From positions 3,733 to 67,732 of the IMG/VR virus record IMGVR_UViG_3300037119_003505: a stretch of DNA of 64,000 nt; one strand, written 5' to 3'. Positions within the stretch are counted from its first letter, which is position 1, and every line of letters begins with the position of its first letter. The translations under genes were made by a program, and so were the position numbers. Below, piece after piece: positions 1 to 25,887 of the stretch. The notes beneath the pieces were generated by a model, which had not been told where the DNA came from, did not search any database, and saw only the letters and a program-made list of their open reading frames with translations. This DNA is from a virus.

Positions 1-1196
1 TGCTCCACATAATCCACTCCCGGCGGGATCACGCACATGCCGTTGCTGATGATGATTTGTCCGGTCGGCCCAACGGTGTTGGTTTTCTTGAACATCGTCG
101 CCATTGAGAGGCGGTACTTGTTCACCAGATCGTTCAGAATCTTGGTCAGCGTTTGGACGTAAGCGAACTGGTCGTAGCCCTGCCCACGGATGCTGTGGTA
201 ATGCCCGTCCCCGATGTTCAGGCAGAATATCGTGAAGGGGTTGCTGTCGGGAGGGAAGCGGGAGACTTTCTTGTAGAGGAATTCCGCATCCTTGTCGCCT
301 TCCTTGGTACCGCCTGGGTTCCGTTCCGCGATGTAGTGGCTGAAACTTCCGTCGAACTCCCGCACCCATCCGTGCATCAGCAGCACGCGGGTGTCGTTCA
401 CAAAGCTGCCGTAGAGGTCGTTCCCCTTCATCATCTCGTTCACCTTGTTCCACTCCAGACTCCATTGGCTTCCCATCTTCCTGCCGACGTACGTGGTGGC
501 CCGTACCAGCGCCTTCCGAACCGCAGCGACGTTCCATCCCACCGCCGTCGCGGCCTTCTCGTTCTCGATCATCCGATACAGAGTCGAAGGAATCATGTCC
601 TCCTTTTGGATCAGGTATTCCACGAACTCCTCAGAGTTTCGGGTGTTGCGCGGGATGAGGAAGTTGTCCAGTCCGGCGAAGTCGAACTTCCAATCGAAGT
701 CCTTCGGGAAATGGCCGAGCGACACGCCGTTCTGCACGAACTGCTGCGCCCCAAGCTGGAACCTCGAATCGAAATCGTTCCAGTCCCGCATCATGGTGGT
801 GAACTCCGCCGCGATCACATCCTCGGCGTTCTGCCGCGTCGAAGCGTCGTACTGGTCAATCGGAATCTCCGGCGCGATCAACGCCTTGAGGCTGTCCAGC
901 ATGTCGAAGAACGGCACGAGTGTCTGCGTAATTCGAGCGCGCGCGAGATTGAAGTTCAGGTTGCTGCCATCCATCGCGCCGGCCTTGGCTTTCTCGGACT
1001 GCTTGTATGGCAGCCCTCCGTTGACCGCGTATTGGATGGCGCTGCGCTGAATCTGCGCCAACTGATCGTTGTAAAGCTCCTTCCAAAATAGCGCCTGAAA
1101 GGATTGCGCGTCCCTGAGTCGTGAACCTGTCGGCTTGCCGGTCTCCGGAAATGCCGCCAGCCTGCCGTCATTTTGTGTCAGGTTGTCAGTGGGCAT
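1..1196 (-). CDS. Probable portal protein (partial, runs off left edge)
   Basis: Not in the ORF track because it has no stop in the window. Manual translation from ATG 1196 (MPTDNLTQNDGRLAAFPETGKPTGSRLRDAQSFQALFWKELYNDQ...) is open for about 398 codons, two genes downstream of TerL. Portal call rests on position, size and helical character. Confidence 0.6.
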   Translation of the reverse strand, partial: MPTDNLTQNDGRLAAFPETGKPTGSRLRDAQSFQALFWKELYNDQLAQIQRSAIQYAVNGGLPYKQSEKAKAGAMDGSNLNFNLARARITQTLVPFFDMLDSLKALIAPEIPIDQYDASTRQNAEDVIAAEFTTMMRDWNDFDSRFQLGAQQFVQNGVSLGHFPKDFDWKFDFAGLDNFLIPRNTRNSEEFVEYLIQKEDMIPSTLYRMIENEKAATAVGWNVAAVRKALVRATTYVGRKMGSQWSLEWNKVNEMMKGNDLYGSFVNDTRVLLMHGWVREFDGSFSHYIAERNPGGTKEGDKDAEFLYKKVSRFPPDSNPFTIFCLNIGDGHYHSIRGQGYDQFAYVQTLTKILNDLVNKYRLSMATMFKKTNTVGPTGQIIISNGMCVIPPGVDYVE

Positions 1197-2049
1197 TCGG
1201 GATCAATCTGGAAGGACGTTTTCGCAGCGCGGAACGACCACGCTTCCGTTTGTTTATCTGATGCAACGCCTCTTGTCTATCAGTTTCTCTACTGTCTCGC
1301 AACAGCTTCAGCAGGCTGCCGTCCTTGCAGCCGTGCAGCACGACGGCATCAGGCCGCACCGGACGGGTTACGGACCGGCCCGCCAGCGCCACCCGAAACG
1401 TGACGGGCTCGCAAACGATTCGTCCCCACGAGCGGTGATAATTGCCGGTGCTCCAGTTGTCCTGACACAGCGGCGTGTTGCGGGCGTGTGGGCGGATCTG
1501 CGGCGCGATGGCGTGATCGAACGCGACGGTGGCGTTGAGGTGCGCGGTTGTGTAGTGGCTGAGGTTCGGCGGATACACCGCGCAGCCGCACAGATGCTCG
1601 CCCGTCTTCACGAGTTCGCCCGAGATGCTGTTGACCGAATACGTCGTGTCCACCACCCCCATGAACGGAAGCGAGAGGTCGCGATTATATTCGTCCGCCA
1701 GCGCATCGGCCCAGCCTTCGCGCATCGGCGTCACGTCTGGCTCCATGAAGTACCACGCCTTGTGAAACTCGGGTGTCCGCCAGATCAGTTCAGCGGCCTG
1801 TCGGAAGATCTCGTTCGGCGCATCGGGCCACTGTTGCGTCGGTATCCGCACCGTGAAGGCTATGGGCGGCGCAGCCCAGCCGCACTGTCGCGCGTTCACC
1901 GCGACGGCTTCGCGCTCGTCTGGAGACAGTTCCTCGCTGTAGGCCAGCAACAAGTTGTGGCGATCATACGGGCCGAGTTCGCGCATCCACTGCATCAGCG
2001 GGATCGCGAGTGCGAGGTCTTGTTTGGAGAACGGGAAGACGATCAGCAT
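1186..2049 (-). CDS. GT-A-like nucleotide-diphospho-sugar transferase-like protein with basic C-terminal tail
   Basis: WYFMEPD (DxD-like) motif, GCAVYP, late HGCKDG motif; start taken at MLIVFPF (ATG 2049), just after the TerL stop. Confidence 0.5.
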   Translation of the reverse strand: MLIVFPFSKQDLALAIPLMQWMRELGPYDRHNLLLAYSEELSPDEREAVAVNARQCGWAAPPIAFTVRIPTQQWPDAPNEIFRQAAELIWRTPEFHKAWYFMEPDVTPMREGWADALADEYNRDLSLPFMGVVDTTYSVNSISGELVKTGEHLCGCAVYPPNLSHYTTAHLNATVAFDHAIAPQIRPHARNTPLCQDNWSTGNYHRSWGRIVCEPVTFRVALAGRSVTRPVRPDAVVLHGCKDGSLLKLLRDSRETDRQEALHQINKRKRGRSALRKRPSRLIPNAH

Positions 2050-2051
2050 GA

Positions 2052-3944
2052 TTACGGAAAGAATCCCAAGTCCACTTCCTCCTGCGGTTCCGGCCACGCG
2101 CCGACGAGTTCGCCATCCTGTTGCTGTTGCGCGAAGTCCTGAAGGTGCATCGGCATCGCCGTGGTGTTGGCGGATGCGGCCTCACGGCTCATGCGCTCCC
2201 ACTCGGCTTCGGCGTTCTTGTTCGCGATGACAGCAATCTCGGAACGGAAGTCGTATTTCGTGCGGCACAGGTCGCACAAAAGCGCCAGACAATCTCCCGA
2301 GTCGGGACTGCGCTTGATCCGTTTCTTCATCACGCGCTTGGATTCCACCGACCGTTTCGTGCTGGTCTGTCCGAGTTTTCCGGTGGTTTCCTTGCGCGCC
2401 AAAAGGTCTTCGATGATGTCGGTTGTCAGTCCCTTGATCTGGCCGCTGCGGATGAAGTCCTTCATCACCATCCACAGTTCCGTCACCCTGCGGTCGTAGA
2501 GTTCGCTGCACGGTTTTTGATCAACTCCGTGTGGTAAGTCGGAAGGTTTGCCGTTGAAATCCACCGCATGAAGGACGGCGTTGTTGAACATGTAAGTTAT
2601 GACGCCGCCAATCTCGCCCGCAGCCCCGGTTGAGTCGTAACCAACATTCTCGGGCGACACACCATGCTCACGACAGAACGCCACGAACTGTTTGGAAATT
2701 TGAATGATAATCGGATCGGGATCGCTTTTGCTGTCAAAAAACTCGGTCGTGCTCGTAACGAGCAACACTCTTTGCCCACTCTTAGTGTGCCCAAGTAGTG
2801 CCAAGGCGGCCTTGTAGGCGTCTCCACCTGATCCGCGTGCCGGATCTAACACCGCCAGACAGGTTGTGCCTCCAGCCCAATCCACATGCGTCTCTGTCAC
2901 TCCACCGTCAACGAGGTCCGCTTCCGAATAGACACATTCCGGATCGCTTCCTTCAGGTGGCCAGAACCCCCGGCATTGACTCCAGTGTTCCAAGGAATCA
3001 GGCCCGTTCGCTTCTTCGCTGGAACGTATGGTTTCGCAAGTCGGCAAGAATGGATAGATGACTCTGCCGGTCAAAACATTCGGCGATTGATACGAGTCGA
3101 ATCGGATGGCGTAGCCAAGCTTCGTTTCCCACTCGTAATCGTTTTCCGAGATCGAATTCCACCCGCCCTTTGGTTCCGAGATGAGTCCGTGTGGATCGTA
3201 TTTAGAGGCAGGGTTGCCGATGCCGATGAACTGGAACCACGGATTCTTTGCGAGGTTGCCTTTGGCGAATTTGAGCAGCGCGTGTGAGAGCTTCGGAAAC
3301 TCGTCACCAACCATGATTACACGCTTGTTGTGACAGCCATCCAGCTTGTCGGCGCTCGCCTTGTCCTGCGAATCTTCGCCGGCCACCAGAGAGATTCCAG
3401 CCTTGTCTGAAATCTTCCGTCCGTCTGCGGAAATCGTGCGGATGATCCCCATGCTGTCCACCAACTTTCCGGGCATGTGGTCCGCTGCGGAGTAGTAGTC
3501 CACAATCGATCCCCAAATCCGTTTCTTGGCTGAGCTTACGGTCGTGGAGGTGACGATCACCATTGTGTTGATCGGATCGCACAGCCAGTTGATGAGCGTC
3601 CAGATCGCGAAGAAATCCGATTTGCCGATGTTTCCAGGGCCGCTCACGCTCAAGTACTGCCACTTACATGAATGCTCCAGCATTTTGTCTGCCCACGGAT
3701 GCCAGATGAACTCCTTCCGTTTGTTGTGTGACCCCCAAATCAGCAGTGCTGCCCGCTTGAAATGTCCGGCCTGCCCGAGTCCGCCAGCATCGACTTTATG
3801 ACTCGCGCGGAAGCAGCGCAACTCGATGCTCAGGTCGTCAATTCCTTCCGGCCACTCAAGGTTGTATTTCACTGGCACGACCGCCCTTTTGCGGATTAGC
3901 GCAACTTTTGCAAGACAAACTCCGCGTAAGCTGTAGGAATACAT
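2052..3944 (-). CDS. terL: Terminase large subunit
   Basis: Walker A SGPGNIGKS, Walker B VGDE, coupling motif GNP, RNase H-like nuclease DPARGSGGD...RSPDSGD; true start may be GTG 3878. Confidence 0.9.
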   Translation of the reverse strand: MYSYSLRGVCLAKVALIRKRAVVPVKYNLEWPEGIDDLSIELRCFRASHKVDAGGLGQAGHFKRAALLIWGSHNKRKEFIWHPWADKMLEHSCKWQYLSVSGPGNIGKSDFFAIWTLINWLCDPINTMVIVTSTTVSSAKKRIWGSIVDYYSAADHMPGKLVDSMGIIRTISADGRKISDKAGISLVAGEDSQDKASADKLDGCHNKRVIMVGDEFPKLSHALLKFAKGNLAKNPWFQFIGIGNPASKYDPHGLISEPKGGWNSISENDYEWETKLGYAIRFDSYQSPNVLTGRVIYPFLPTCETIRSSEEANGPDSLEHWSQCRGFWPPEGSDPECVYSEADLVDGGVTETHVDWAGGTTCLAVLDPARGSGGDAYKAALALLGHTKSGQRVLLVTSTTEFFDSKSDPDPIIIQISKQFVAFCREHGVSPENVGYDSTGAAGEIGGVITYMFNNAVLHAVDFNGKPSDLPHGVDQKPCSELYDRRVTELWMVMKDFIRSGQIKGLTTDIIEDLLARKETTGKLGQTSTKRSVESKRVMKKRIKRSPDSGDCLALLCDLCRTKYDFRSEIAVIANKNAEAEWERMSREAASANTTAMPMHLQDFAQQQQDGELVGAWPEPQEEVDLGFFP

Positions 3945-3946
3945 GG

Positions 3947-4738
3947 ATGCCGAAGAAAAACGAGGACGATCTACCGAAGCTGGCTGTGTACGAGAAAGTT
4001 GACCCCTGTAACCCTAGAAATTTCTCGGATGAAAAGATCATCGAGATGACGAAGGACTGGCCGCTGCCGCTCGTGATGGGTTGCGAACAAGCCGAGATAC
4101 AAGAGTGTCGCGACCGTTTTGAGCGACACTGGATCACTGGTTCGGACCACGGGTTGAGCATGTTCATGAATCTGCGGGCGCGGTGGAAGCAGTGCCGGGA
4201 TCTTTTTGAAAGCGGCACATCACTGGCGAGTCTCAACAGGATGTTCCGGTTCAGCAAGGAAAGCATCGTGCGGCGTTCGTTGCGGCATCATTGGAAAGTT
4301 CCAATTACCAGCCCGACGGCGATCAGGACTGAGTATGGAAAGTCGTGCGATCAGCCGATCAGCCTCATCACATCGCAGGAGGAGCAGGAGCTTCCAGCCT
4401 CCACGCAAGAACTGATGCGGGAGCGTCGGCTCCTGAACCTCGCGGGCGCGCAGTGGGACGCGGTGCCGTTCCGTGACCAGAAGGAAGCGTTGCGGATGCG
4501 GATTCACAAGCTGGCGCGACGGGCGCTCAGTTGGTACGAGGAACAGACCGATGAACAGATCGCGCAGGCCGATACCGTCAAGACCCTCAAGGAACTCGCC
4601 GCCATTGCGGAGAAGGTCGCGCCCGTCGAGGTGGAGCAGCAGCCGATCCGCGCTGGCGCAATGCTGCACGCCTTGGTGATGCAGGGCGGCGACGTGCTGC
4701 CGCCACGGGCGACGGTGCGGGAGATTAAAGCGGGGTAG
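3947..4738 (+). CDS. Putative terminase small subunit (HTH plus helical oligomerisation region)
   Basis: WKQCRDLFESGTSLASLNRMFRFSKESIVRRSLRHHW resembles TerS N-terminal HTHs; helical C-terminal half; head-to-head with terL. Confidence 0.5.
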   Translation: MPKKNEDDLPKLAVYEKVDPCNPRNFSDEKIIEMTKDWPLPLVMGCEQAEIQECRDRFERHWITGSDHGLSMFMNLRARWKQCRDLFESGTSLASLNRMFRFSKESIVRRSLRHHWKVPITSPTAIRTEYGKSCDQPISLITSQEEQELPASTQELMRERRLLNLAGAQWDAVPFRDQKEALRMRIHKLARRALSWYEEQTDEQIAQADTVKTLKELAAIAEKVAPVEVEQQPIRAGAMLHALVMQGGDVLPPRATVREIKAG

Positions 4739-4793: not shown

Positions 4794-4907
4794 ATGACGA
4801 TCAAACAGATGCAGCAAAAGGGAGGTCGCTCCAAGTCGCCTAAGAAGCTGCGCGCAGTGAAGCGCAACCTCAAGAAAGCTTGGGCCGCGCGACGCAATCG
4901 CCGATGA
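4794..4907 (+). CDS. 37-aa basic peptide MTIKQMQQKGGRSKSPKKLRAVKRNLKKAWAARRNRR
   Basis: Manual translation; KGG-type basic peptide; TTGCAA -35-like hexamer at 4750-4755. Confidence 0.55.
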   Translation: MTIKQMQQKGGRSKSPKKLRAVKRNLKKAWAARRNRR

Positions 4908-4938
4908 CGTTCAGTGAGGCGGCAAGCATTTTCGAGTG

Positions 4939-5196
4939 ATGCAACTGATTACCAAACGACCGGGACTGAATCTGAATTGCGTGCGCTGCAACTCAGCGGT
5001 GATTCTTGAAAAAGACGATGTTCAAGATAAGCTCGTTTATTTCGAATTCAGCACACATCCGGGACTGCAATCCACGCAGTTCTGGTTTTGGAGTTGCCCC
5101 GTGTGTCGTCACGACAACGCGGTGACACGACACACTCTCCCGATGGAGTGGCCTGCGTATCAACCGATTCCGCAATACGCCGCAATGCCAGCATGA
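4939..5196 (+). CDS. Zn-ribbon protein
   Basis: CVRC...CPVC; stop overlaps next start (ATGA). Confidence 0.6.
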   Translation: MQLITKRPGLNLNCVRCNSAVILEKDDVQDKLVYFEFSTHPGLQSTQFWFWSCPVCRHDNAVTRHTLPMEWPAYQPIPQYAAMPA

Positions 5197-5777
5197 GCCG
5201 CGAAAGCACGAAGGCCATGAAGCGCCGTTTTTTAGAAGACCAGTCCGGCACGCTGCCGTTCCGGTGGTGTGACGTGTTCATGGGCGACGGGATCGACATC
5301 GGATGCGGCGACGACAAGCTACCGTTTCCGTCGTGCAAGGGATTCGACACAAAGGATGGCGACGCCAACAAGCTGAGTGACTACTTCCCATCTGAGAGTC
5401 AGGACTTCGTGGCAGGCTCGCAAGCGCTCGAACACATGCACAACCCTGCGGCTGCGCTGCACGAGTGGCTGCGTTGCGTGAAACGTGGCGGATACATCGT
5501 GCAGACGATCCCATCGTGGGAATTATACGAAGGCATGGTGTGGCCTTCGCGCACGAATGGGGATCACAAATCCACATGGAGCATGTGGCAAAAGGGCAGT
5601 CCAGCGCCGCATCACTGCAAGATGCCAGAGTGGCTGGAGCAGTTCGGCTGCGAGGTGCTGATCTGTCGTCTCGTGGATAACGGATACGACTACAAGATCG
5701 GAACATCCAAGGATCAGACGTGGATTCCTGAGCATGGTGTTGAGGCGTTCATCGAATTCGTTCTGCGCAAGCCATGA
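5193..5777 (+). CDS. Class I SAM-dependent methyltransferase
   Basis: GIDIGCG motif I, QDFVAGSQALEH, WLRCVKRGG. Confidence 0.85.
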   Translation: MSRESTKAMKRRFLEDQSGTLPFRWCDVFMGDGIDIGCGDDKLPFPSCKGFDTKDGDANKLSDYFPSESQDFVAGSQALEHMHNPAAALHEWLRCVKRGGYIVQTIPSWELYEGMVWPSRTNGDHKSTWSMWQKGSPAPHHCKMPEWLEQFGCEVLICRLVDNGYDYKIGTSKDQTWIPEHGVEAFIEFVLRKP

Positions 5778-6355
5778 AGACCCCGACACAGCTACTCTGG
5801 GAACGGTTCGGTACAACCGAGCATCCCGCCGAATGGGACGGACGCGACGGCAACGGCGGCATCGGCTCGCAGCGGTTCTGGGAGTATCTGTGGGTGCTGC
5901 AACAGATCGGTACGCCGCAGAGCGTGCTGGATGTGGGCGGCGGTGCTGGGTTCTTTGCTGCGATACTGAACGACTCGGCAATTCAAGCGAACGTAGTTGA
6001 CCCGCTTCTTCCAGAATGGGGGAAAGCCGACTTCAAAAGCACACTAGAGCAATTCGTTGCAGCATCATTGACAGCAGACAATCGCTCAGGTTATGAATGG
6101 CTGGTATCAATTTCAGTACTCGAACACGTGCCAGACAAGCCCGCCTTCTGCGCCGCTCTAGACAGCTTCGACGCCCCGATTGCCCTCACGTTCGAGTTCG
6201 GGCCGGGATGCATCGAGATGCCCGAAGTGTACCGATGCTTGGCTGCCTTCAAGCGGCACCACATCACGAAGATGGAACTGTGCCCCGTCGTGGCCGACAA
6301 TAGCGACGCCTCGCGCTGGCGTCCGTTCGGCATCGTGCTGCAACCGAATTTATGA
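5774..6355 (+). CDS. Class I SAM-dependent methyltransferase
   Basis: VLDVGGGAG motif I, SISVLEHV. Confidence 0.8.
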   Translation: MKTPTQLLWERFGTTEHPAEWDGRDGNGGIGSQRFWEYLWVLQQIGTPQSVLDVGGGAGFFAAILNDSAIQANVVDPLLPEWGKADFKSTLEQFVAASLTADNRSGYEWLVSISVLEHVPDKPAFCAALDSFDAPIALTFEFGPGCIEMPEVYRCLAAFKRHHITKMELCPVVADNSDASRWRPFGIVLQPNL

Positions 6356-7071
6356 ATACCTTCACCGTCACGGTCGCGAACCGTATTCCGACTGAGCCGT
6401 ACTACCACTACGCCAGTTATCTGAACAGCCTCGCGCGGTTCGGCGTGGTGCCGGAAGTCGTAGGACTCGGCAGGCAATGGCTCGGCCTGATGACCAAGCC
6501 GGTGCGTTTTCGGAATTGGCTGCGTGACCAGCACTTCGAGGAACAGGATCGCGTCATCTACACAGACAGTTGGGACGTGCTGTTCGCCGCCTCGCCTGAC
6601 AGCATCGCGGCCAAGTGCGCAGAACTGTTCGGCGACGCTGTGGTTTACTGCACTGAAAAATCCTGCTGGCCCCTCGCAGAACTGGCGCATCACTTTCCAG
6701 ACGAAGGCACGCCTTGGCGCTACCTGAACGGAGGGGCTATGTGCGGGCCTGCGTGGAAGCTGCGGACGATGTTTGAGAGCATGAATCTGGAGCAGTATGG
6801 ATTCGACCGCGAAGATCTGGACAAGCCACGCATAGAGCCGAATGACGCGGTGCCGCTCGTCAAGGCTTTCGTCGAGCAGCCCGTGCTTGTGAAGGTGGAC
6901 GCCCGCTGTCAGGTGTTCCAGTGCTTCTCGGAATGCAGCGCGGATGAATTCGAGATCACGGAGGCCGGCGTGAAGAACAAGCTGACCGGAACCGTGCCTG
7001 GAATCCTGCATTTCAATGGGGGCAGCAAAGAATCCTTGATGCCTGCGGTTCTGGCCGCGATGAATTTATGA
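6352..7071 (+). CDS. PLOD/LH3-type GT-A glycosyltransferase domain
   Basis: YTDSWDV (DxxD), TEKSCWP, YLNGG, DARCQVFQ, ILHFNG match the order of motifs in the PLOD N-terminal GT domain. Confidence 0.75.
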   Translation: MNTFTVTVANRIPTEPYYHYASYLNSLARFGVVPEVVGLGRQWLGLMTKPVRFRNWLRDQHFEEQDRVIYTDSWDVLFAASPDSIAAKCAELFGDAVVYCTEKSCWPLAELAHHFPDEGTPWRYLNGGAMCGPAWKLRTMFESMNLEQYGFDREDLDKPRIEPNDAVPLVKAFVEQPVLVKVDARCQVFQCFSECSADEFEITEAGVKNKLTGTVPGILHFNGGSKESLMPAVLAAMNL

Positions 7072-7430
7072 AAGTACTGAACAACGACGAACGCGGCACC
7101 ATTATCGAAGTCGCAAAGAAAGCTGATGTGCTTCTCATCAGCAGCAGGGTTGGAAGCCGCCGCGCCAACCATTACCACAAGCGATTCGGACATCTCTGCA
7201 TCGTGGCAGAAGGATGCGTGCATTACTACGAGCGCGAGGTTGGCTCAAAGGAAAAACCAACAATGAAGGCATACGCGAAAGGCGAGACCTTTGATACAAG
7301 GCCGATGATGGAGCATCTGATGCTGTTTCCTGTAGAGACGGTTTTTTACTGCTACAGCTACGGCGCAAGGGACAAGGAAAACTACGAGGACGACACCGTG
7401 CGGCTGGCATTCCAACTGGACGAGCAATGA
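7068..7430 (+). CDS. Cupin (RmlC/FdtA-like sugar isomerase/epimerase)
   Basis: DERG, RANHYH cupin motif, position inside sugar cluster. Confidence 0.65.
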   Translation: MKVLNNDERGTIIEVAKKADVLLISSRVGSRRANHYHKRFGHLCIVAEGCVHYYEREVGSKEKPTMKAYAKGETFDTRPMMEHLMLFPVETVFYCYSYGARDKENYEDDTVRLAFQLDEQ

Positions 7431-8638
7431 TCACCGCACACCACAAATGCCGCCTCTGCGACAGCGGCAACATCGAGGAGGTCATCGACCTCGGCTACAG
7501 CCCGCTGGCGAACGCATACCTGACGAGCGACCAACTGGCCGACGTGCTGAGCGGCAAGCGCGAGGAAATCTTCACGCCGCTGCGCTGCTTCCTGTGCATG
7601 GAGTGCGGTTCAGTGCAGTTGAGCCACAGCGTCCCATCCGAAGTGCTGTTCGGCGACTACCTGTACGCTTCCTCAACGTCGCCGTCGTTCGTGCGGCATT
7701 TCGAGGACTTGGCGGTGCATTGCGTTGACCTTGGATTTGTGAAGGCTGGCGATGCCGTGGTTGACATTGGCAGCAATGACGGGATCGCGCTGAAGGCGTT
7801 TCAGGACAAAGGATGCAGGATTACAGGCATCGAACCTTCTGACAGACTGAGCGACATGGCGAACTCACGCGGGCTGGCGACGGTTTGCGAATACCTTGAT
7901 CCGAAGGTTGCGAAATACGTCTGCGGTGGAATCGGACCAGCCAAGATCGTCCTCGCCACGAACGTCTTCGCGCACCTCAGTGACCTGAAGGGCTTCGTCG
8001 AATCCGTGAAGCTGTTGCTCGACAAGGACGGCATCTTCGTGTTCGAGAACAGCTACCTCGGCGACGTGGTGGACGACATGCTGTTCGACACGATCTACAT
8101 GGAGCATCAGTTCTATCACTCGCTGACTCCTCTGGTGCGGTTCATGGAAGCAATGGAACTGCCTGTGTTTTACGTCGAACGGATCAATACTCACGGAGGA
8201 AGCATTCGGGTGTTTTGCGGACAGCGACCCGGTAAAGATTCTTCCGTTCTTGAAACCGTTGGCCGTGAGAGTCATCTGTGTGACCCGCGCACCTACCGCG
8301 CCCTCATGGACCGCATCCAGTGCTACAAACATCGATTGCATTCGGTGTTGCGACCAATTGGCAAAATGGCTGCGTTTGGATGCCCTGCAAAGTTCACCAC
8401 CTTCACTCACGCGCTGGATCTCACAGAGCGGTTCGATTATGTCGTGGATGATTCTCCGCTGAAGGTCGGGATGTTCACGCCGGGAAGTCATTTGCCGATT
8501 CAAGAGAAATACAAACTTGACGGCACGGTGACTGCGTTCGTGTCCGCATGGAACTTCTTCGATCCTATCTATGAACAAAACAAGGAACGCACAAAAGGCT
8601 GGATTCGTCCGCTGCCGCAACTGGAGGTTCTGCCATGA
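7427..8638 (+). CDS. NDP-sugar C-methyltransferase (TcaB9/NovU/EryBIII-like)
   Basis: N-terminal Zn site CRLC...CMEC, DLGYSPLAN, DIGSNDG, IYMEH, GCPAK, YVVDDSPLKVG. Confidence 0.88.
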   Translation: MITAHHKCRLCDSGNIEEVIDLGYSPLANAYLTSDQLADVLSGKREEIFTPLRCFLCMECGSVQLSHSVPSEVLFGDYLYASSTSPSFVRHFEDLAVHCVDLGFVKAGDAVVDIGSNDGIALKAFQDKGCRITGIEPSDRLSDMANSRGLATVCEYLDPKVAKYVCGGIGPAKIVLATNVFAHLSDLKGFVESVKLLLDKDGIFVFENSYLGDVVDDMLFDTIYMEHQFYHSLTPLVRFMEAMELPVFYVERINTHGGSIRVFCGQRPGKDSSVLETVGRESHLCDPRTYRALMDRIQCYKHRLHSVLRPIGKMAAFGCPAKFTTFTHALDLTERFDYVVDDSPLKVGMFTPGSHLPIQEKYKLDGTVTAFVSAWNFFDPIYEQNKERTKGWIRPLPQLEVLP

Positions 8639-9669
8639 CTGATTTGGAACTGAAGGACTGTTATGAAATTGAAAGTTCGCTAGGTTTTTCGGCGCATAGT
8701 TTCACGGGGAAACGAATCCTCATTCCAGGCGGGAACGGCTTTCTCGGAAAGGTGTTCATCAACTTCTTCCAATACCTGAACGCACATGCACTCACTGCCC
8801 CAGTAAAGATCGTCGCGGTGGACAACTACATCGTCGGAGTGAACCCAGTTCAACAGTCCACCGAGCACGTCACCTACCTGACGCACGACATGACGACACC
8901 ACTGCATCTTGCCGTGCGTGGACGGTTCGACTACATCCTGAACCTCGCCGGAATGGCGTCGCCTGCGGCCTACCAGAAGGTTCCGCTGGCCGTTCTGGAC
9001 GTGAGCTACATCGGCACCCGCAACGTGCTGGAACTCGCGGCGATCCACGGTTCCCGCGTCCTGAACTTCTCAAGTAGCGAGTGCTACGGAGATCCAAGTC
9101 CTGAGAACATCCCGACTCCAGAAACATACGACGGGCAACTGAGCAGCACGTCGAAGCGTGCGCCGTACGACTGCGGCAAGAAGGTTCTGGAGGCGCTGTC
9201 GCACGTCTTCCGCGAGCACTACGGCGTGGACGTGTCGATCATCCGGCCATTTAACGTCTATGGCTACATGCACCGCAACGACTACCGCGTGATCCCGAAC
9301 TTCGTCCATCAGGCACATGACTTCAAACCCATCCGCGTGTATGCGCCCGGCACACAGACGCGGACGTTCTGCTGGTACGGCGACTTCCTTGCTGGTGTCC
9401 TAACGGTGCTGTTGAAGGGGGGTGATTTCTGCTACAACGTGGGTGCGCAGGTTGGCGAGATCACGATGATGGAGCTTGCCCGCGCAGTCGAATCGGAGTT
9501 TGGCGGCAATGGGTTGGTGCAGATGGTGGATGCGCCGCCAGTTTACGTTCACGAACCGCAGCGTCGTTGTCCCGATATTTCCAAGCTGCGCGCGCTCAGC
9601 TACGAGCCGAAGGTGTCACTCCGCGAAGGACTCAAACGAATCCGCACATGGCTAACTTCTGCGTCATAG
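8635..9669 (+). CDS. UDP-glucuronate decarboxylase (UXS)-like NAD-dependent epimerase/dehydratase
   Basis: GGNGFLG, LAGMASP, SSSECYGDP, YDCGK (YxxxK), RPFNVYG, QTRTFC, PQRRCPDISK. Confidence 0.88.
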   Translation: MTDLELKDCYEIESSLGFSAHSFTGKRILIPGGNGFLGKVFINFFQYLNAHALTAPVKIVAVDNYIVGVNPVQQSTEHVTYLTHDMTTPLHLAVRGRFDYILNLAGMASPAAYQKVPLAVLDVSYIGTRNVLELAAIHGSRVLNFSSSECYGDPSPENIPTPETYDGQLSSTSKRAPYDCGKKVLEALSHVFREHYGVDVSIIRPFNVYGYMHRNDYRVIPNFVHQAHDFKPIRVYAPGTQTRTFCWYGDFLAGVLTVLLKGGDFCYNVGAQVGEITMMELARAVESEFGGNGLVQMVDAPPVYVHEPQRRCPDISKLRALSYEPKVSLREGLKRIRTWLTSAS

Positions 9670-10403
9670 GCACCGGCCCGTGGGGGCGCACAGTGGCGGC
9701 GAAGATTCAGGAACTCGGCCACGAGTGCGAGTCGTGCAGTGCGCGCGGTGATGACTATAAGATGCTGATTCTGCGCAATGAAATCGTGTTTGTAGCCGCG
9801 CACCCTGATGTCAATGTGGCGATTGCGGAGTTTGCGATACAGAAGGGCAAGCCCGTAATTGTGGAGAAGCCGGTCGCGTTCTCCGCCACGGCTGTCAAGG
9901 CGCTGCTGACTGCGTCCATCAAGGCCAAGGTGCCGTTCATTGTGGACTACATCCATCTGTTCGACAAAGACCTCTTGAAGATTCGGGACGGCACTCCGCA
10001 CAGCATGTCGGTCGCGATGGGTGGCGACACGGTGCGGGATTACTCGTCGCTCCACGATTACGGCAGTCACGCCTTCGCGGTCGCGCTGGAGTGTTTCAAG
10101 ACCCCCGTGACGGCCATTGAGGTGCTGCACCCTGGCGAGGCGTACCGGCTACGGTTCGGTTCCGGAATGGCGGAAGTGTTTGTCGGGAACAACTGGCCTG
10201 AGAAAGTTGTGAAGGTTAGGGCCATCGGGCAGGACTGGGATTTGCTGTGGCAGGACAGCCGCCAGAACGATCCGCTCGCCGCGCTGCTGAACAAGGTCGT
10301 GGAACTGCATGAACATGGGCGCTACTGGAGCAATGGGAATCTGGCCTTTCTGGTCACGGCGCTGCTTGAGAGGCTGCACAACGAATCGCCCGTCTTGAAA
10401 TGA
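9648..10403 (+). CDS. Gfo/Idh/MocA-family oxidoreductase
   Basis: VIGTGPWG Rossmann motif, VEKPV, DYGSH. Confidence 0.82.
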   Translation: MANFCVIGTGPWGRTVAAKIQELGHECESCSARGDDYKMLILRNEIVFVAAHPDVNVAIAEFAIQKGKPVIVEKPVAFSATAVKALLTASIKAKVPFIVDYIHLFDKDLLKIRDGTPHSMSVAMGGDTVRDYSSLHDYGSHAFAVALECFKTPVTAIEVLHPGEAYRLRFGSGMAEVFVGNNWPEKVVKVRAIGQDWDLLWQDSRQNDPLAALLNKVVELHEHGRYWSNGNLAFLVTALLERLHNESPVLK

Positions 10404-11392
10404 AGGTGGCATTTTTCCTCTCATCCACAGGCGGCAGCCCCCTACAGGTCGGCCTTGATCGCGGCCTTGTGTCGCTCGGCCATCAGGTCGAGCCGTGGCG
10501 AAGTGACGGCGGCTACGATCTCATCGTCGCGTTCAGCCAGTCCGCGCACTGCCCTTACGTGTATCCCGAACCGCCGTCGTGCCAGACACCGCTCGTGTTC
10601 GTGGACAGCAGCGAGTATGGCTGGAATACTCGCTTCACTACGGAACAGCGCCGCTCGTTCTGTAACTTCTTCGCCGCCGCCTCGCTGAAGCACGACACAA
10701 AGGTTGAGGTCGAGACGTTGCGCCTGAAACGCTACCTCGAAGGCCGCAGCTTCCCGTACTTCCTGCGCGAGTTTTATTCTGACCTGACCTTTCCGTCCTG
10801 CTACCACCCCATCGACTACCCGCTCTACGCCCACAGCCTGTGTCCGGCACGTCCGAGCTTGGACGACTACGTTCGGCGGCAAGAAGACCTGTTCCTCAGT
10901 TGGGGCATCAGCCACCCGTGGCGGCGCAACCTGACCGATCTGCTGCGGGCCGCTCCGGTGCGCTCTACAGTGCTGGCCCTTGAGGAGAACGGCACACCCA
11001 GGATGCCGCAGGCTGAGATGTTCGCCCGCACCCACTCGGCCCGTTGTAGCGCCAGCTTCGACGGCTACGGCAGCAGCAGCTTCCGACTCACTGAGGTGAT
11101 CGTACGGACGCTGTTGCTCAAGGGGCCGCTCTGCATCAAACTGCGTGAAGACCTGACCGATGGGCTGAACTGCGTCGAGTATCAGGTGACGGGCGACGGC
11201 GACACCTTTGTGAGCAGCAACATCGTGGAGCGGATGCTGTGGGCACTGGAAGATCCGGAGCGTGGCTTCCGTATCTACGAGGCTGGCTACCACCACTGCA
11301 TGTCTCGCTGGACGGAGACAGCGACCGCGCAGTACTTGCTCGATACGGTGGCGCGGCACGACTACTCGCAACCGACGCAGCTTGATCTATGA
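10400..11392 (+). CDS. GT-B fold glycosyltransferase-like protein
   Basis: C-terminal FDGYGSSSFRLTE...DGLNCVEY...ERGFRIYEAG resembles the Glyco_trans_1_2-type C-terminal domain; cluster context. Confidence 0.6.
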   Translation: MKVAFFLSSTGGSPLQVGLDRGLVSLGHQVEPWRSDGGYDLIVAFSQSAHCPYVYPEPPSCQTPLVFVDSSEYGWNTRFTTEQRRSFCNFFAAASLKHDTKVEVETLRLKRYLEGRSFPYFLREFYSDLTFPSCYHPIDYPLYAHSLCPARPSLDDYVRRQEDLFLSWGISHPWRRNLTDLLRAAPVRSTVLALEENGTPRMPQAEMFARTHSARCSASFDGYGSSSFRLTEVIVRTLLLKGPLCIKLREDLTDGLNCVEYQVTGDGDTFVSSNIVERMLWALEDPERGFRIYEAGYHHCMSRWTETATAQYLLDTVARHDYSQPTQLDL

Positions 11393-11602
11393 GCAATGAC
11401 TCAGGCGCAACTAACACTACCACCAAGAGCCATCGTGTTTACGGATGGTTTAAGTTCCGAGTCGGACGTAAGATTCAGGGCCGGACGCATTGCATGTCTT
11501 GCGAGAAGGTACAAGCCATTGGCGGGACTTCAAGATGACAGCTACTATTCCAGTCCTGCGTTTATCAAAGGATATTACTGGCAGAGAAATTATTGCCCTC
11601 TT

Positions 11603-12694
11603 ATGACCAAGCCCAAACGCACCCACGCCGTCACCGATGCTGTCCGCGCCGGACTCGCCAAGGCCCGCGCTGCCAGAGCAGCTAAGGCTGATCCTGTCTT
11701 GAAAAAGGCGCTCAAGGAACTGGCGAACCAGCGTCCGATGAAAACAGATGAACGCAAGTCTCTTGATGAGTTTTGTAGGTCTGAGTTTCGGGCGCTGACC
11801 GAACTGAGTCTCGACGAAGTGATGGGCCAAGCCATGCAACAGCATCCCGAGATGCAGGACTACGTGACATGCTGGCAGGTGGCGCAACTCGGCATCGCGC
11901 TGCCGCCGTGCAGCATGGACGAGGCGGATGCGGCGCTGAAGCGGGCGCAGATGCGGCATCGTGTCACCGTGACGGGCGAGCAGACGTTCGTCCACAGCGC
12001 GGACCTTGGCGACATTATTGCGGCGCTGCCGGTCATTCGTGCAATGGGTGGAGGTAAACTCATCATCACCGAACTTCCGCAGGGTCCGTTCCACGGGCGC
12101 GAAAGCCTCAGGGGTGCCCGATTTGACTCACTGAAGCCGTTGCTAGAACTGCAACCTTACATCACCTCTGTTGAGTGGGGTGAATCGCCGTTCGGAGTGA
12201 TCGATTTTCGCGGTTTCAGGCACGGCCTGCCCGGTGGTGAGAACCTGACGGTATCGCAGGCCCGCCACGTTGGCTGCGAGGACTTCAGCTTTTCCAAGTG
12301 GCTCGACGTTCCTGATCCGATTCCCGGCCCTGCGGTGTTCGCCCGTTCGCCTCGCTATTGGCAGCCTCGCATGAACTGGAGCATCATGTACGCTAAGCAT
12401 CCGGACGCGGTGTTCGTTGGAACAGAAAACGAACATGCCGAGTTTCAGAAAGCCACCAACATCACGTTGCCGCACCGAAAGACCAAGGATTTGCTGGAAC
12501 TGGCGCGAGTGATCGCAGGTTGTGAGCGGTTGTTCTGCAACCAGTCTTGTCCGCTCTGGATCGGGTTCGGCTTGGAGCATCCGCTGGTGCTGGAGGTGTC
12601 AATGGAGAACTCAATTCAGAACTCCATCATCGACAATCCGAAGTTCTTCTACATCGGCAACCAAACGCAGGCCGGGCGCGGAAACTGGCGCTAG
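11603..12694 (+). CDS. GT9 (heptosyltransferase)-like glycosyltransferase with basic N-terminal extension
   Basis: HSADLGDIIAALP and DLLELARVIAGCERLFCNQSCP motifs; start taken at MTKPKR (11603), ORF is open from 11396. Confidence 0.65.
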   Translation: MTKPKRTHAVTDAVRAGLAKARAARAAKADPVLKKALKELANQRPMKTDERKSLDEFCRSEFRALTELSLDEVMGQAMQQHPEMQDYVTCWQVAQLGIALPPCSMDEADAALKRAQMRHRVTVTGEQTFVHSADLGDIIAALPVIRAMGGGKLIITELPQGPFHGRESLRGARFDSLKPLLELQPYITSVEWGESPFGVIDFRGFRHGLPGGENLTVSQARHVGCEDFSFSKWLDVPDPIPGPAVFARSPRYWQPRMNWSIMYAKHPDAVFVGTENEHAEFQKATNITLPHRKTKDLLELARVIAGCERLFCNQSCPLWIGFGLEHPLVLEVSMENSIQNSIIDNPKFFYIGNQTQAGRGNWR

Positions 12695-13305
12695 TTCCGC
12701 TTCCAGCAAAATGACGGTGGTGGCGGAAGCTCTGATTCGTTCGGCACGATTGCTTCCAGCGGCGCGAAGACGAGGACCGACAACTGGCACCCACAATGCC
12801 CGCACGACTTCAGGCTCGCGCCGTGAACTGTGGTCTTGTTTCCGATGAAGCTGAAGATCCTCGCCGCCAGATCGGTGCAGCCGCCGCAACCTGGGAGGTA
12901 CGACGATTGATTCAGTGGACACGTCACGCAGATGGCTGCGCGGCGATCCGCCTCCGCTTGATCGACACAGGTTCCGTTGCTCCACCAGTCACGAATCTTG
13001 GAAAAGAATGTCTTCAGGTCGTCCCAAGTGATGAGTCGCTGCTGTTTCAAGAACTCAGGCGTGTCGGTGCCGATACGACGACAGGCTTCGGCGCGAAGGC
13101 TTGGCGACAGGGCACGGCAGCACGCATCGCTGAAGACTGCGAGTTCGTTGTCGAACTTCAACCCAAGTTGTTTGCAACGTGCGTCGAACAATTCTTTAAC
13201 CTGCTCTGCCGATCCAGCCCGCACCACTTCATCGGTGCCGGGTATCACGGCAGCGTCCCTCGGTGCTCCGTTGCGGCTCCACCAGTATTCGACGTTATCG
13301 GCCAC
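12691..13305 (-). CDS. Cys-rich putative Zn-binding hypothetical protein
   Basis: RRAAICVTCP, CGGC, CGHCGC; last gene of the virion operon. Confidence 0.65.
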   Translation of the reverse strand: MADNVEYWWSRNGAPRDAAVIPGTDEVVRAGSAEQVKELFDARCKQLGLKFDNELAVFSDACCRALSPSLRAEACRRIGTDTPEFLKQQRLITWDDLKTFFSKIRDWWSNGTCVDQAEADRRAAICVTCPLNQSSYLPGCGGCTDLAARIFSFIGNKTTVHGASLKSCGHCGCQLSVLVFAPLEAIVPNESELPPPPSFCWKRN

Positions 13306-24405: not shown

Positions 24406-24434
24406 ACTCTATGGAGTCTGTGCGGCGGTGTCAA
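24406..24434 (-). promoter_or_regulatory. Sigma70-type promoter TTGACA-N17-TAGAGT
   Basis: Perfect -35 and 17-bp spacing upstream of the adaptor/ejection operon. Confidence 0.7.
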
Positions 24435-25300
24435 CCACGAATGAACAGCGCGCCTTCGTTCGTGGACTGCTCTGCGAATTTCTTCCACGCAACGGCGTTA
24501 TTCGGAAAACTCATCTCCGCCATCAGCATCAGTGCTTCCTTGAAGTTGGCGTTGACGATCAGCGCCTTCATGCACGCATCCCTTGCTTCGGAGCCTCGTT
24601 TTTCGAGCCAAAGAATCTTGGCGATGTAGAGCCATGCGTCCGCCTTCTCGGCTGGAAACTTGCTGTGCTGAGTGCATCTCAAGAATAATTTACCGGCGTT
24701 GGCATAATCCTTCCGGTACCAGTATTCACGGGCGAGGTAGTAAAGGTTTCGCGCGTGATCTGGATTGAGCGCAACCTGCTTGGAAAGAATTCGGATGTAT
24801 CGATCCGGATCGAGTTTGTGTGCAGGGCTGTAGAGACATTCGCGCCGTAAACTGCCCCTCATTCCGTTTAGGATACTTTGATTCTCAAACAGGTTTTCGT
24901 GCGCCTCGCCCATCCAATGGATACTTGGCAGATTTTTCCACAGCACCGTGCGCCAGCGTTGCGCTTGATCTTGCAGTGCGATGGCATTGCATCTGGCCTC
25001 TTCGGCGCGGACAATCTCAGTCTTTATTTCAGCAATGCTGGAGATGATCCTGTGATCGGCGTCAAGACTCAGAACCCAATCACCCGTAGCCCGCGCCTTT
25101 GCACTGTTTCTAGATGCGCTGAAATCATCCGTCCAAGGCTCTGAAAATACGAGTGATGTAAACTTGCGCGCGATCTTCTGTGTGGAGTCGGTGCTGCCAG
25201 TGTCCACCACCACAATCTCGTCCGTCTTGCGAACGCTTTTCAGCGCGCCCTCAATCATCTCTCCCTCGTCCTTCGCGATCATGACAACCGAAAGCCTCAT
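24431..25300 (-). CDS. GT2 glycosyltransferase with C-terminal TPRs (SunS/SgtA-like)
   Basis: [36 protein letters not shown]; TPR-like RNLYYLARE...AWLYIAK. Confidence 0.9.
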
Positions 25301-25887
25301 ACTCCAGGCCAAAACACTATGAGGGATTGAGTAGCGCCGTCCCAGTCCAAGTAATGCAGATTGATTTGCGGCGGTTCAAACGGCGGCCCGGTCGGACCTA
25401 TGGGGCCAGTGGGTCCGGTTGGTCCCGTAGGACCAGTCGGCCCTGTTGGACCGTCTAATCCCGTTGGTCCCGTAGGGCCATCGTCACCAGTCGGACCTGT
25501 CTCACCAGTCGGACCCGTGGGACCGTCGCCACCCGGAGTTCCGGCTGTGCCTTGCTGCCCGTCCTTGCCAGGTCCCGGAACCTCACCCATCGGCCACACC
25601 GGAGGTACGTAGGGCGTAACTGACGGCGCGAATGACGGCATTCGGCTCTCAAGCGGTCTCGTCTGTGGGCCTTCTTTCCAAGACGGAACCGCGTTACGCA
25701 TCGCCTCGGCAAGACCGTCCAGCGTGACGGCTGGAGCGTTCTTGCTCGGCGTCGGGTTCGGCTGCCGCTGCATGTCCTTGAGCTTGTCGAGCGCGGATCG
25801 CTGATCCAGCTTTGCGAGCGCCTTCTCGGCATCACGCGCAGTTTTGCGCTGTGCCGCTTTCTCAGGAGTCCATTGTGCGTCCGGCAT
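25297..25887 (-). CDS. Collagen-like (GPT-rich) protein, probably virion fibre/decoration
   Basis: About 21 uninterrupted Gly-X-Y triplets, mostly GPT. Confidence 0.8.
25381..25569 (-). repeat. Gly-X-Y collagen repeat (9-bp degenerate tandem)
   Basis: [39 protein letters not shown] (GPT)n GPI GPT GPP read from DNA. Confidence 0.9.

Follow-up and report, generated by a model that had tools for sequence, protein, structure and literature searches.

A phage operon predicted to make a C-methyl-branched sugar for a virion glycan

We analysed a 64,000-nucleotide stretch of DNA (hereafter the window; positions 3,733 to 67,732 of IMG/VR virus record IMGVR_UViG_3300037119_003505) from an uncultured soil phage, represented by this single linear record of 74,062 bp with a CheckV completeness of 94%. 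Our subject is an operon of ten genes on the + strand at window positions 4936-12694. It encodes a cupin, a nucleotide-sugar C-methyltransferase (C-MTase), an extended short-chain dehydrogenase/reductase (SDR) related to UDP-xylose synthase (UXS) and a short Gfo/Idh/MocA-type oxidoreductase (the Gfo protein), together with two small methyltransferases (MT1 and MT2), three glycosyltransferase (GT)-like proteins and an 86-aa protein (g0). We propose, at about an even chance, that this operon makes a C-methyl-branched UDP-pentose and builds it into a glycan of the virion. A more far-reaching proposal, which we put forward tentatively, is that the cassette diverts the 4-keto intermediate of the UDP-xylose synthase reaction into a C-methyl-branched pentose not described so far, that this sugar is used across many bacterial and archaeal phyla, and that the phages coat a collagen-like fibre of Thr/Ser repeats with a diversifying glycan whose decorations are methyl, carbamoyl and pyruvyl groups.

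Core enzymes and the predicted sugar

By sequence comparison the C-MTase is a sugar C-methyltransferase of the TcaB9/TylC3 type, its catalysis and regiochemistry being predicted. It matches the D-mycarose 3-C-methyltransferase 4rv9 (E = 6e-56), the sugar 3-C-methyltransferase 5t64 (1e-51) and TcaB9 (3ndi, 9e-49) in the PDB, and carries the N-terminal four-Cys zinc domain PF08421 (2.2e-18), the class-I S-adenosylmethionine (SAM) domain PF13489 and the C-terminal domain PF08484 (3e-19). The zinc-site residues C8, C11, C57 and C60 and the Y-x-E-H motif (Y224, E226 and H227, aligned with YHEH of 4rv9) are invariant in an alignment of 16 sequences.

The SDR encoded next to it is predicted to be of the decarboxylase type, acting as a UDP-glucuronate decarboxylase. 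Its best solved relative is human UXS1 (9.3e-46, 160 bits), with the next hit at 3e-20 and other SDR classes at 76 bits or less. The protein shows a glycine-rich NAD motif (GGNGFLG) and a YxxxK motif (YDCGK), a triad S147-S148-E149 and an arginine in the sequence Q-T-R243. Across 77 cassette SDRs (that of the window and 76 homologues), the Tyr and Lys, the Ser or Thr of the triad and its Glu occur in 77/77, and the Arg is kept in 75/77. The S-E of these proteins stands where, as we take it, 4,6-dehydratases have D-E. Decarboxylases of this class are described as having a T-S-E triad and a conserved Arg (PMC10338323). The near-invariance of decarboxylase residues argues that the SDR is not a mere ketoreductase, which would not need them.

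The linkage of these two enzymes extends well beyond the phage. A profile search with a C-MTase alignment found 334 relatives in IMG/VR and more than 520 in species-representative genomes; an alignment was needed as query, a single C-MTase sequence having found no relatives among viral contigs. Locus counts given here refer to the best 80 loci of each set. The cupin gene lies directly upstream of the C-MTase gene in 57/80 viral and 59/80 cellular loci. A UXS-like SDR is adjacent in 11/80 viral loci (34-44% identical), seven of which have a Gfo homologue after it, and in 67/80 cellular loci (36-44% identical), with a Gfo homologue following in 17. The cellular loci come from CPR bacteria, Woesearchaeota (DPANN archaea), Methanosarcinales, Chloroflexota, Proteobacteria, Verrucomicrobiota, Acidobacteriota, Nitrosopelagicus and Pelagibacter (SAR11), and the cassette is apparently both widespread in bacteria, archaea and other viruses and uncharacterised.

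In 14 of 76 loci, from Woesearchaeota, Methanosarcinales, Gammaproteobacteria and CPR bacteria, C-MTase and SDR are fused in a single frame of about 765-795 aa. Both domain orders occur: the SDR comes first in one fusion (locus L155:374-2722) and the C-MTase in the others. Pfam bears out the architecture in five, namely L155 and L100:7950-10265, L145:7974-10274, L166:7968-10259 and L126:620-2974. Because the two enzymes are adjacent in dozens of phyla and fused in both orders, they probably act on consecutive intermediates, and the fusions suggest a hand-over between the two active sites. The initial annotation had proposed a C-methyl-branched, possibly pentose-derived sugar, and the decarboxylase signature of the SDR, its adjacency to the C-MTase and the fusions all argue for such a product.

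In a phylogenetic tree the C-MTases of the phage and its relatives form a clade (support 1.0) beside other viral copies, nested in a mostly UXS-linked cellular clade (support 0.92-0.95). A second large clade, separate from this one and made up of about 55 viral loci (L014-L076), retains the cupin but lacks a UXS-like neighbour; it presumably stands for a distinct C-methyl sugar pathway that draws on some other keto-sugar.

What the cupin and the Gfo protein do is less sharply indicated. The cupin model (pLDDT 88) best matches, in the PDB, the cupin domain of S. aureus CapF (TM-score 0.76, E = 1.5e-7, 21% identity) and, among Swiss-Prot structures, residues 254-369 of P. aeruginosa WbjC (TM-score 0.78); a profile of six orthologues matched Cap5F alone in the PDB (E = 0.024). 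The protein has no significant Pfam match, falling below the curated cut-off of PF14667 (23.4 vs 28.7 bits, 6.7e-5). Because of that score and the modest profile E-value we do not file it as a member of the family, and say that it probably works like the CapF/WbjC type, whose cupin domain epimerises C3 of a UDP-4-hexulose. An assignment as a 3,4-ketoisomerase of the FdtA/QdtA type (R-A-N-H-x-H-K motif) was considered and not adopted, these enzymes appearing at ranks 12 and 36, below CapF. In the Gfo protein the GxGxxG (GTGPWG) and EKP (VEKP) motifs are visible; it matches the N-terminal Rossmann/EKP part of its family, with no Pfam match to the C-terminal domain.

The precursor would be supplied by the host. 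The initial annotation had noted that the window encodes no UDP-glucose dehydrogenase or nucleotidyltransferase and had looked to the host for the precursor; PF03721 and PF00483 scans extend this absence to the whole 94%-complete genome, so that UDP-glucuronate must come from the host. Compact genes of the UDPG_MGDP_dh family (264-284 aa) adjoin the cassette in two viral loci (L039:3950-4804 and L047:3374-4168); their proteins match the N-terminal (partial) and central Pfam domains, with no match to the C-terminal domain returned. The family is encoded in 30/30 cassette-bearing cellular genomes checked. Just 7/80 cellular loci, however, have such a gene within 8 kb of the cassette, so that in cells the gene neighbourhood supports this precursor weakly.

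In the pathway that we propose, the SDR would oxidise and decarboxylate UDP-glucuronate to a UDP-4-keto-pentose, as its homology and conserved catalytic residues suggest. The C-MTase would then methylate the carbon beside the keto group, C3 by precedent, a step to which homology, gene linkage and the natural fusions point; to our knowledge all TcaB9-type enzymes methylate beside a 4-keto group. In the least secure step the CapF-like cupin may epimerise or isomerise the keto-sugar, and its keto group would be reduced, by the Gfo protein or by NADH retained in the SDR, to give a C-methyl-branched UDP-pentose. On this view the operon would serve a phage that is probably lytic as a cytoplasmic unit for building glycans, needing only UDP-glucuronate, SAM and NAD, which are common host metabolites.

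Glycosyltransferases, decorations and the candidate acceptor

C-MTase homologues with 59-74% identity occur on five other phage contigs of 34-76 kb. The operon takes the same position in all of them, between the large terminase gene (TerL) and a convergent gene for 205-250 aa that is followed by one for a protein of 2300-2700 aa. Genes for a PLOD-type GT (PLOD-GT), the cupin, C-MTase, SDR, Gfo protein (again after the SDR) and a GT of the GT-B fold (GT-B, 51-80% identical) are always present, the PLOD-GT thus being common to all six phages. A GT9-like protein and a GT-A-like protein encoded beside TerL, the latter 59-71% identical in L001, L003 and L006, are shared with the three closest relatives. 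Orthologues of MT1 (74-80% identical) occur in L001 and L003, and those of MT2 (59-61%) in L003 and L006. Beside or in place of MT1 and MT2, the relatives have a PF13578 methyltransferase, a carbamoyltransferase of the NodU/CmcH type (PF02543 + PF16861) and, in L001, a polysaccharide pyruvyl transferase (PF04230), none of which is encoded in the window (L001:6466-9469, L003:6879-9221 and L006:7145-9402). Such a pattern, in which the sugar core stays constant and the decorations are exchanged, would be expected of a glycan that is exposed and subject to diversifying selection.

The operons of the relatives also contain HNH homing-endonuclease genes and an IS1595-type transposase between their genes (L003:12262-12930; L006:6462-7148 and 15223-16194; L004:6377-7333), which marks the operon as a hotspot for mobile insertions.

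The PLOD-GT is the most clearly assigned of the transferases, scoring 88.5 bits against PF25342 (cut-off 27 bits) and matching the GT domain of LH3 (6wfv, 1.7e-14) and Mimivirus R699 (9.4e-11), with its acidic motif TDSWDV aligned to VDSYDV of LH3. No hydroxylase domain was found in it by Pfam. The family glycosylates collagen in animals and Mimivirus (PMC9546862). GT-B has no Pfam match; its Atlas model aligns with a viral Glyco_trans_1_2 cluster (TM-score 0.75 by query and 0.79 by hit), 91% of whose members carry PF13524. Its Atlas neighbours include the RXYLT1_C and GT90 families, which we take to include xylosyltransferases and treat as a lead only. The GT9-like protein combines a helical N-terminal part of about 125 aa with a GT9-like Rossmann part (model pLDDT 85). 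Its best PDB matches are the GT9 entry 3tov (3e-7, TM-score 0.46 over the whole query), WaaC, TibC and WaaF; no Pfam match, including PF01075, was returned, and the resemblance is at the level of fold, with an Atlas neighbour at rank 35 only. A GDLGDII..LP motif is conserved in its orthologues, and its C-terminal domain is elsewhere fused to methyltransferases and other GT domains.

Two more transferases are encoded outside the operon. The GT2-TPR protein (a family 2 GT with weak tetratricopeptide repeat matches) is identified by PF00535 and phrog_13126 (2e-39); its match to TIGR04195, a model of SunS-type peptide S-glycosyltransferases, is far under the cut-off (1e-12). For the GT-A-like protein beside TerL, Pfam and PHROG gave no match; its Atlas feature neighbours are labelled 'Glycosyltransferase family protein' (0.98), and its structural neighbours are of the GT8 and GT2 families (TM-score 0.57-0.61). 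Five GT-like genes had been counted initially: the three of the operon and GT2-TPR stand as such, and the fifth is a probable GT recognised from its Atlas neighbours. Likewise, the two proteins annotated as O-methyltransferase-like proved to be SAM methyltransferases with a generic class-I SAM fold, which does not bear out the 'O-' specificity. PDB sequence searches with MT1, MT2 and GT-B returned nothing useful.

We suggest that the PLOD-GT, GT-B, GT9-like and GT-A-like proteins would assemble an oligosaccharide containing the branched sugar, and that MT1 and MT2 would methylate it, the relatives carbamoylating or pyruvylating theirs instead or in addition. Judging by position and comparison, the acceptor would be a virion protein, most likely a collagen-like protein primed by GT2-TPR. 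This protein has about 20 Gly-X-Thr triplets, mostly Gly-Pro-Thr and free of Lys, through which it matches PHROG tail-fibre families. Its gene is ATGA-coupled to that of GT2-TPR and adjoins a modular fibre-like gene, whose 587-aa product has only residues 1-230 in common with many proteins of a representative search (an 811-aa orthologue takes the same place in L174). In a related phage (L003/L174) the collagen-like orthologue P0421 (L174:12440-14390 region) shares the N-terminus (48% identical, E = 7e-22), and about 17 Gly-(Tyr/Trp/Phe/Leu)-Ser triplets replace Gly-Pro-Thr. Its neighbour is not GT2-TPR but a 457-aa protein whose C-terminal half matches the PHROG glycosyltransferase family phrog_1962 (3e-38); a PDB sequence search with it found nothing useful. 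Repeat and GT have thus both been swapped at a conserved position, yet the Y position still holds a hydroxy amino acid and the gene still has a GT beside it, though not an orthologous one. A collagen-like gene occurs within 10 kb of the C-MTase in 11/80 viral and 0/80 cellular loci, and in L047 a 1036-aa collagen protein is encoded directly between GTs and the full cassette.

A virion protein is therefore the acceptor that we favour: the operon and an extra GT-A-like gene lie in the morphogenesis region in all relatives, the operon enzymes have no predicted membrane segments, and the kinds of GT (PLOD-type, GT2-TPR and a GT9-like fold shared with TibC) are in keeping with it. The collagen-like Gly-Pro-Thr protein may be the best candidate.

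Operon layout and genomic setting

Coordinates of the operon genes and of the other features discussed are collected in Table 1. The initial annotation had described nine of the genes as one ATGA-coupled operon, and all nine are open + strand frames without internal stops whose family calls held up in Pfam, PDB, model and Atlas comparisons. ATGA overlaps were found at seven junctions (g0/MT1, MT1/MT2, MT2/PLOD-GT, PLOD-GT/cupin, cupin/C-MTase, C-MTase/SDR and Gfo/GT-B). Since g0, which has a CxxC...CxxC pattern, is coupled in this way too, the unit starts earlier than position 5193, where it had been placed. The SDR and Gfo genes overlap by 22 nt, and 3 nt separate GT-B from the last long frame, which has an in-frame ATG at 11396. 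The database gene call and the orthologues (356 and 358 aa) place the start of the last gene at 11603 instead; a start at the upstream ATG would lengthen the protein by 69 residues without support from any orthologue. In relatives the GT9-like gene directly overlaps the GT-B stop, and the 69-codon stretch at 11396-11602 (+) might be inserted sequence, an extension of the N-terminus or non-coding DNA.

Table 1. Genes of the operon and other features of the window
Feature	Position	Strand	Evidence or remark
86-aa CxxC...CxxC protein (g0)	4936..5196	+	phrog_2834 (unknown function) 2.8e-5; ATGA-coupled to MT1
MT1, small class-I SAM methyltransferase, 194 aa	5193..5777	+	PF08241 3.3e-8, PF13489
MT2, small class-I SAM methyltransferase, 193 aa	5774..6355	+	PF13489 6.8e-7
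PLOD/LH3-type GT-A glycosyltransferase, stand-alone, 239 aa	6352..7071	+	PF25342 5.2e-25
Cupin, CapF/WbjC-like, 120 aa	7068..7430	+	Model and structure matches
TcaB9/MtmC/TylC3-type nucleotide-sugar C-methyltransferase (C-MTase), 403 aa	7427..8638	+	PF08421 + PF13489 + PF08484
UXS/ArnA-type extended SDR, predicted UDP-glucuronate decarboxylase, 344 aa	8635..9669	+	PF01370; human UXS1 match
Short Gfo/Idh/MocA-type NAD(P) oxidoreductase, 251 aa	9648..10403	+	PF01408 7.2e-8; ATG at 9648
GT-B-fold glycosyltransferase, 330 aa	10400..11392	+	Atlas model; Glyco_trans_1_2/RXYLT1_C/GT90-like neighbourhood
GT9-like protein, 363 aa	11603..12694	+	Database gene call, orthologues, model
Probable GT-A-like glycosyltransferase between TerL and 794-aa head-region gene	1186..2097	-	Atlas neighbours
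Large terminase TerL	2052-3944	-	phrog_2
GT2-TPR glycosyltransferase	24431..25300	-	PF00535 1.1e-16; start overlaps collagen-like gene stop
Collagen-like protein, 196 aa, candidate glycan acceptor	25297..25887	-	PF01391 5.5e-8
Modular fibre-like protein, 587 aa	25889..27652	-	Conserved N-terminal ~230 aa, variable C-terminus
Primase-helicase	52592-54508		

In none of the operon proteins does the hydrophobicity of any 19-residue stretch exceed 1.6, the usual mark of a membrane helix, and a megablast search of the operon against GenBank phages gave no match. The operon had been assigned to a late module. Its position between TerL and the tail-fibre and giant genes is indeed conserved in all relatives; the argument is positional only, and its strand is opposite to that of both flanking morphogenesis and structural blocks (-). 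The presumed head, tail and giant proteins yielded hardly any matches in PHROG and Pfam scans, so that the label 'late module' draws on TerL and the fibre-like genes only.

Upstream of the glycan genes and on the same strand, a gene for a 263-aa helical protein (3947-4738, +; 24-29% identical in relatives) diverges from the TerL start and is possibly the small terminase; it is followed by a 34-codon open reading frame for a very basic peptide (4803-4906, +). On the other side of the operon a 2505-aa protein (13295-20812, -) has long coiled-coil and Pro/Ala/Thr-rich stretches and no PHROG match. Its giant counterparts in relatives match the ddrB-ParB and ART-PolyVal families, which we take to be marks of polyvalent proteins, and this suggests that the 2505-aa protein is polyvalent and possibly injected.

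Alternative explanations and comparison with known systems

Several observations weigh against a branched pentose on the virion, beginning with its chemistry. C5 of a pentose is not a stereocentre and methylation fixes C3, leaving a CapF-type C3 epimerase without an obvious job; our model may therefore not hold as to the sequence of steps or the carbon that is methylated: the cupin may come first or catalyse keto-isomerisation, or a carbon other than C3 may receive the methyl. The cassette SDRs carry Ser (74/77) where UXS, ArnA and EvdS6 have Thr, and in EvdS6 mutation of the triad Thr abolishes the reductive half-reaction (PMC10338323). The Gfo protein has 251 aa against about 320 aa in the cellular cassette copies, just 17/80 of which have a detectable homologue after the SDR. 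As to the acceptor, the collagen-like gene and GT2-TPR lie 11.7 kb from the operon end, and the nearest GT2-TPR homologues are just 47% identical, with none on the relatives' contigs. The counts of collagen-like genes near the C-MTase come with no proper background rate in viral contigs. Scans for promoters and terminators near the operon did no better than chance, and the operon runs on the strand opposite to both neighbouring structural blocks. The explanation as a whole rests on predictions from genes. A lipid-linked acceptor is possible too, because the cellular cassettes sit in ordinary surface-polysaccharide clusters.

That last point leads to an explanation we consider rather unlikely, in which the same enzymes remodel a glycan of the host envelope (O-antigen, capsule, S-layer or wall polymer) through lipid-linked intermediates at the cytoplasmic face during infection, which could block superinfection or keep progeny from sticking to debris. 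Around one cellular cassette lie GT4 and Glyco_trans_1_2 transferases together with an FkbM methyltransferase, neighbours of the kind found in surface-polysaccharide clusters, the carbamoyl and pyruvyl decorations of the relatives are typical of exopolysaccharides, and soluble GTs are able to act on undecaprenyl-linked acceptors. The operon, however, has no flippase, polymerase, initiating phosphoglycosyl transferase or predicted membrane segment, and in all relatives it lies, with a further GT, inside the morphogenesis region. No integrase was found in the phage genome, which makes classical lysogenic seroconversion unlikely, and the pairs of GT and collagen-like genes point to a protein acceptor. 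They also speak, with the PLOD-type GT and GT2-TPR, against a glycan on the phage DNA, a base hypermodification that would counter restriction and that we regard as very improbable. T4 glucosyltransferases do use GT-B folds, and virus-encoded GTs can hypermodify DNA with diverse glycans, according to Pyle et al. 2024 as cited in PMC12619734. DNA is nonetheless an unlikely acceptor because the 94%-complete 74-kb genome has no thymidylate-synthase-like hydroxymethylase (PF00303), and the scanned proteins included no other base-modifying enzyme. The initial preference for the virion over DNA thus gains from the missing hydroxymethylase, the lack of membrane-helix segments, the conserved position and the collagen-like/GT pair.

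The sugar itself might also be a different one, a possibility to which we assign a low probability. If the SDR were not a decarboxylase in vivo, the cassette could follow the logic of L-mycarose synthesis (TylC3 as C3-methyltransferase, TylK as cupin 5-epimerase and TylC2 as 4-ketoreductase), turning an NDP-4-keto-6-deoxyhexose or 4-keto-hexuronate of the host into a C-methyl 6-deoxyhexose or uronic acid. The C-MTase relatives of solved structure do all act on dTDP-4-keto-6-deoxy sugars, and a cupin epimerase is chemically sensible only with a substituent on C5. The top NCBIfam match of the SDR is a dTDP-glucose 4,6-dehydratase model, though at 77 bits vs a cut-off of 365 bits, and its score against UXS1 is twice that against any dehydratase, epimerase or reductase. 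The retention of S-E and the decarboxylase Arg in the cassette SDRs, the absence of a 4,6-dehydratase or nucleotidyltransferase from the phage and the UDPG_MGDP_dh genes beside the cassette in L039 and L047 all argue for the UDP-4-keto-pentose instead.

If our preferred reading of a branched pentose on the virion is right, virion self-glycosylation, shown so far for a few mycobacteriophages and giant viruses, would be broader and chemically richer, with phages bringing a complete tailoring pathway for a branched sugar. The exchange of decoration enzymes between close relatives is expected for a surface under selection by host receptors, defence, grazers or antibodies. The four-gene core would be a compact, widespread and apparently uncharacterised nucleotide-sugar pathway; its product, once identified, would add to the short list of C-branched sugars, and its enzymes could serve glyco-engineering.

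The closest precedent among tailed phages is the virion glycosylation of the mycobacteriophages Che8, Corndog and Myrna (Freeman et al. 2023, as cited in PMC12619734). These phages likewise have soluble GTs of their own, some with methyltransferases, and share with our proposal a virion-protein acceptor. They differ, as far as that account goes, in not being known to encode a nucleotide-sugar C-methylation pathway and in their acceptors, which are capsid and tail-tube C-termini; here the acceptor would be a collagen-like protein, with the glycan predicted from genes. The fibrils of Mimivirus and the Megavirinae, with the PLOD-type enzymes L230 and R699 (PMC9546862, PMC9614988, PMC10117803), provide the other parallel, a viral nucleotide-sugar pathway with GTs and collagen-like proteins. 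These, however, are giant viruses of eukaryotes with hydroxylysine as the collagen acceptor, whereas the phage has no lysyl hydroxylase and has Thr at the Y position of the repeat. The terms 'C-methyl' and 'branched-chain' do not occur in a 2022 review of giant-virus glycans.

At the level of single enzymes, the C-MTase shares with TcaB9, KijD1, MtmC and TylC3 the same three domains (zinc ribbon, SAM and C-terminal) and the Y-x-E-H motif (E values 1e-48 to 6e-56), and the methylation beside a 4-keto group would be as in actinomycete deoxysugar pathways. It is only 30-40% identical to these enzymes. Its genetic partner is a decarboxylase of the UXS type, joined to it in one protein in other genomes, where theirs is a 4,6-dehydratase pathway; a UDP-4-keto-pentose is therefore the probable substrate of the C-MTase, which moreover occurs in phage and cellular glycan clusters rather than antibiotic clusters. 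The SDR resembles ArnA, RsU4kpxs, CalS9, AtmS9 and EvdS6 (PMC10338323), UXS-family enzymes that release a keto-pentose, in being an extended SDR with the triad, its Glu and the conserved Arg. Those decarboxylases pass the keto-pentose to a downstream tailoring enzyme, and ArnA is likewise fused to its partner; in the phage the triad is S-S-E rather than T-S-E, the downstream enzyme is a SAM C-methyltransferase, and keto release is predicted. CapF/WbjC, the closest structural match of the cupin, acts on a UDP-4-keto sugar, as the phage cupin would, with the difference that its cupin is fused to a 4-reductase, whereas that of the phage is a stand-alone protein.

The collagen-like glycoproteins of the BclA/SgtA type on Bacillus and Clostridioides spores have Gly-Pro-Thr repeats, are encoded beside a GT2-TPR and bear unusual methylated sugars. 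The phage has the same pairing of Gly-Pro-Thr collagen-like repeats with a GT2-TPR gene; the likeness drawn here is one of shared features. Those are bacterial spore proteins, and the phage protein has just 196 aa. We found no description in the literature of a phage-encoded sugar C-methyltransferase or of a pathway joining UXS and C-MTase. Self-glycosylating viruses and each of the enzyme families are already known, and we therefore count the system as a variation on a known kind of system, in which the new parts are possibly a new sugar and a collagen-like acceptor.

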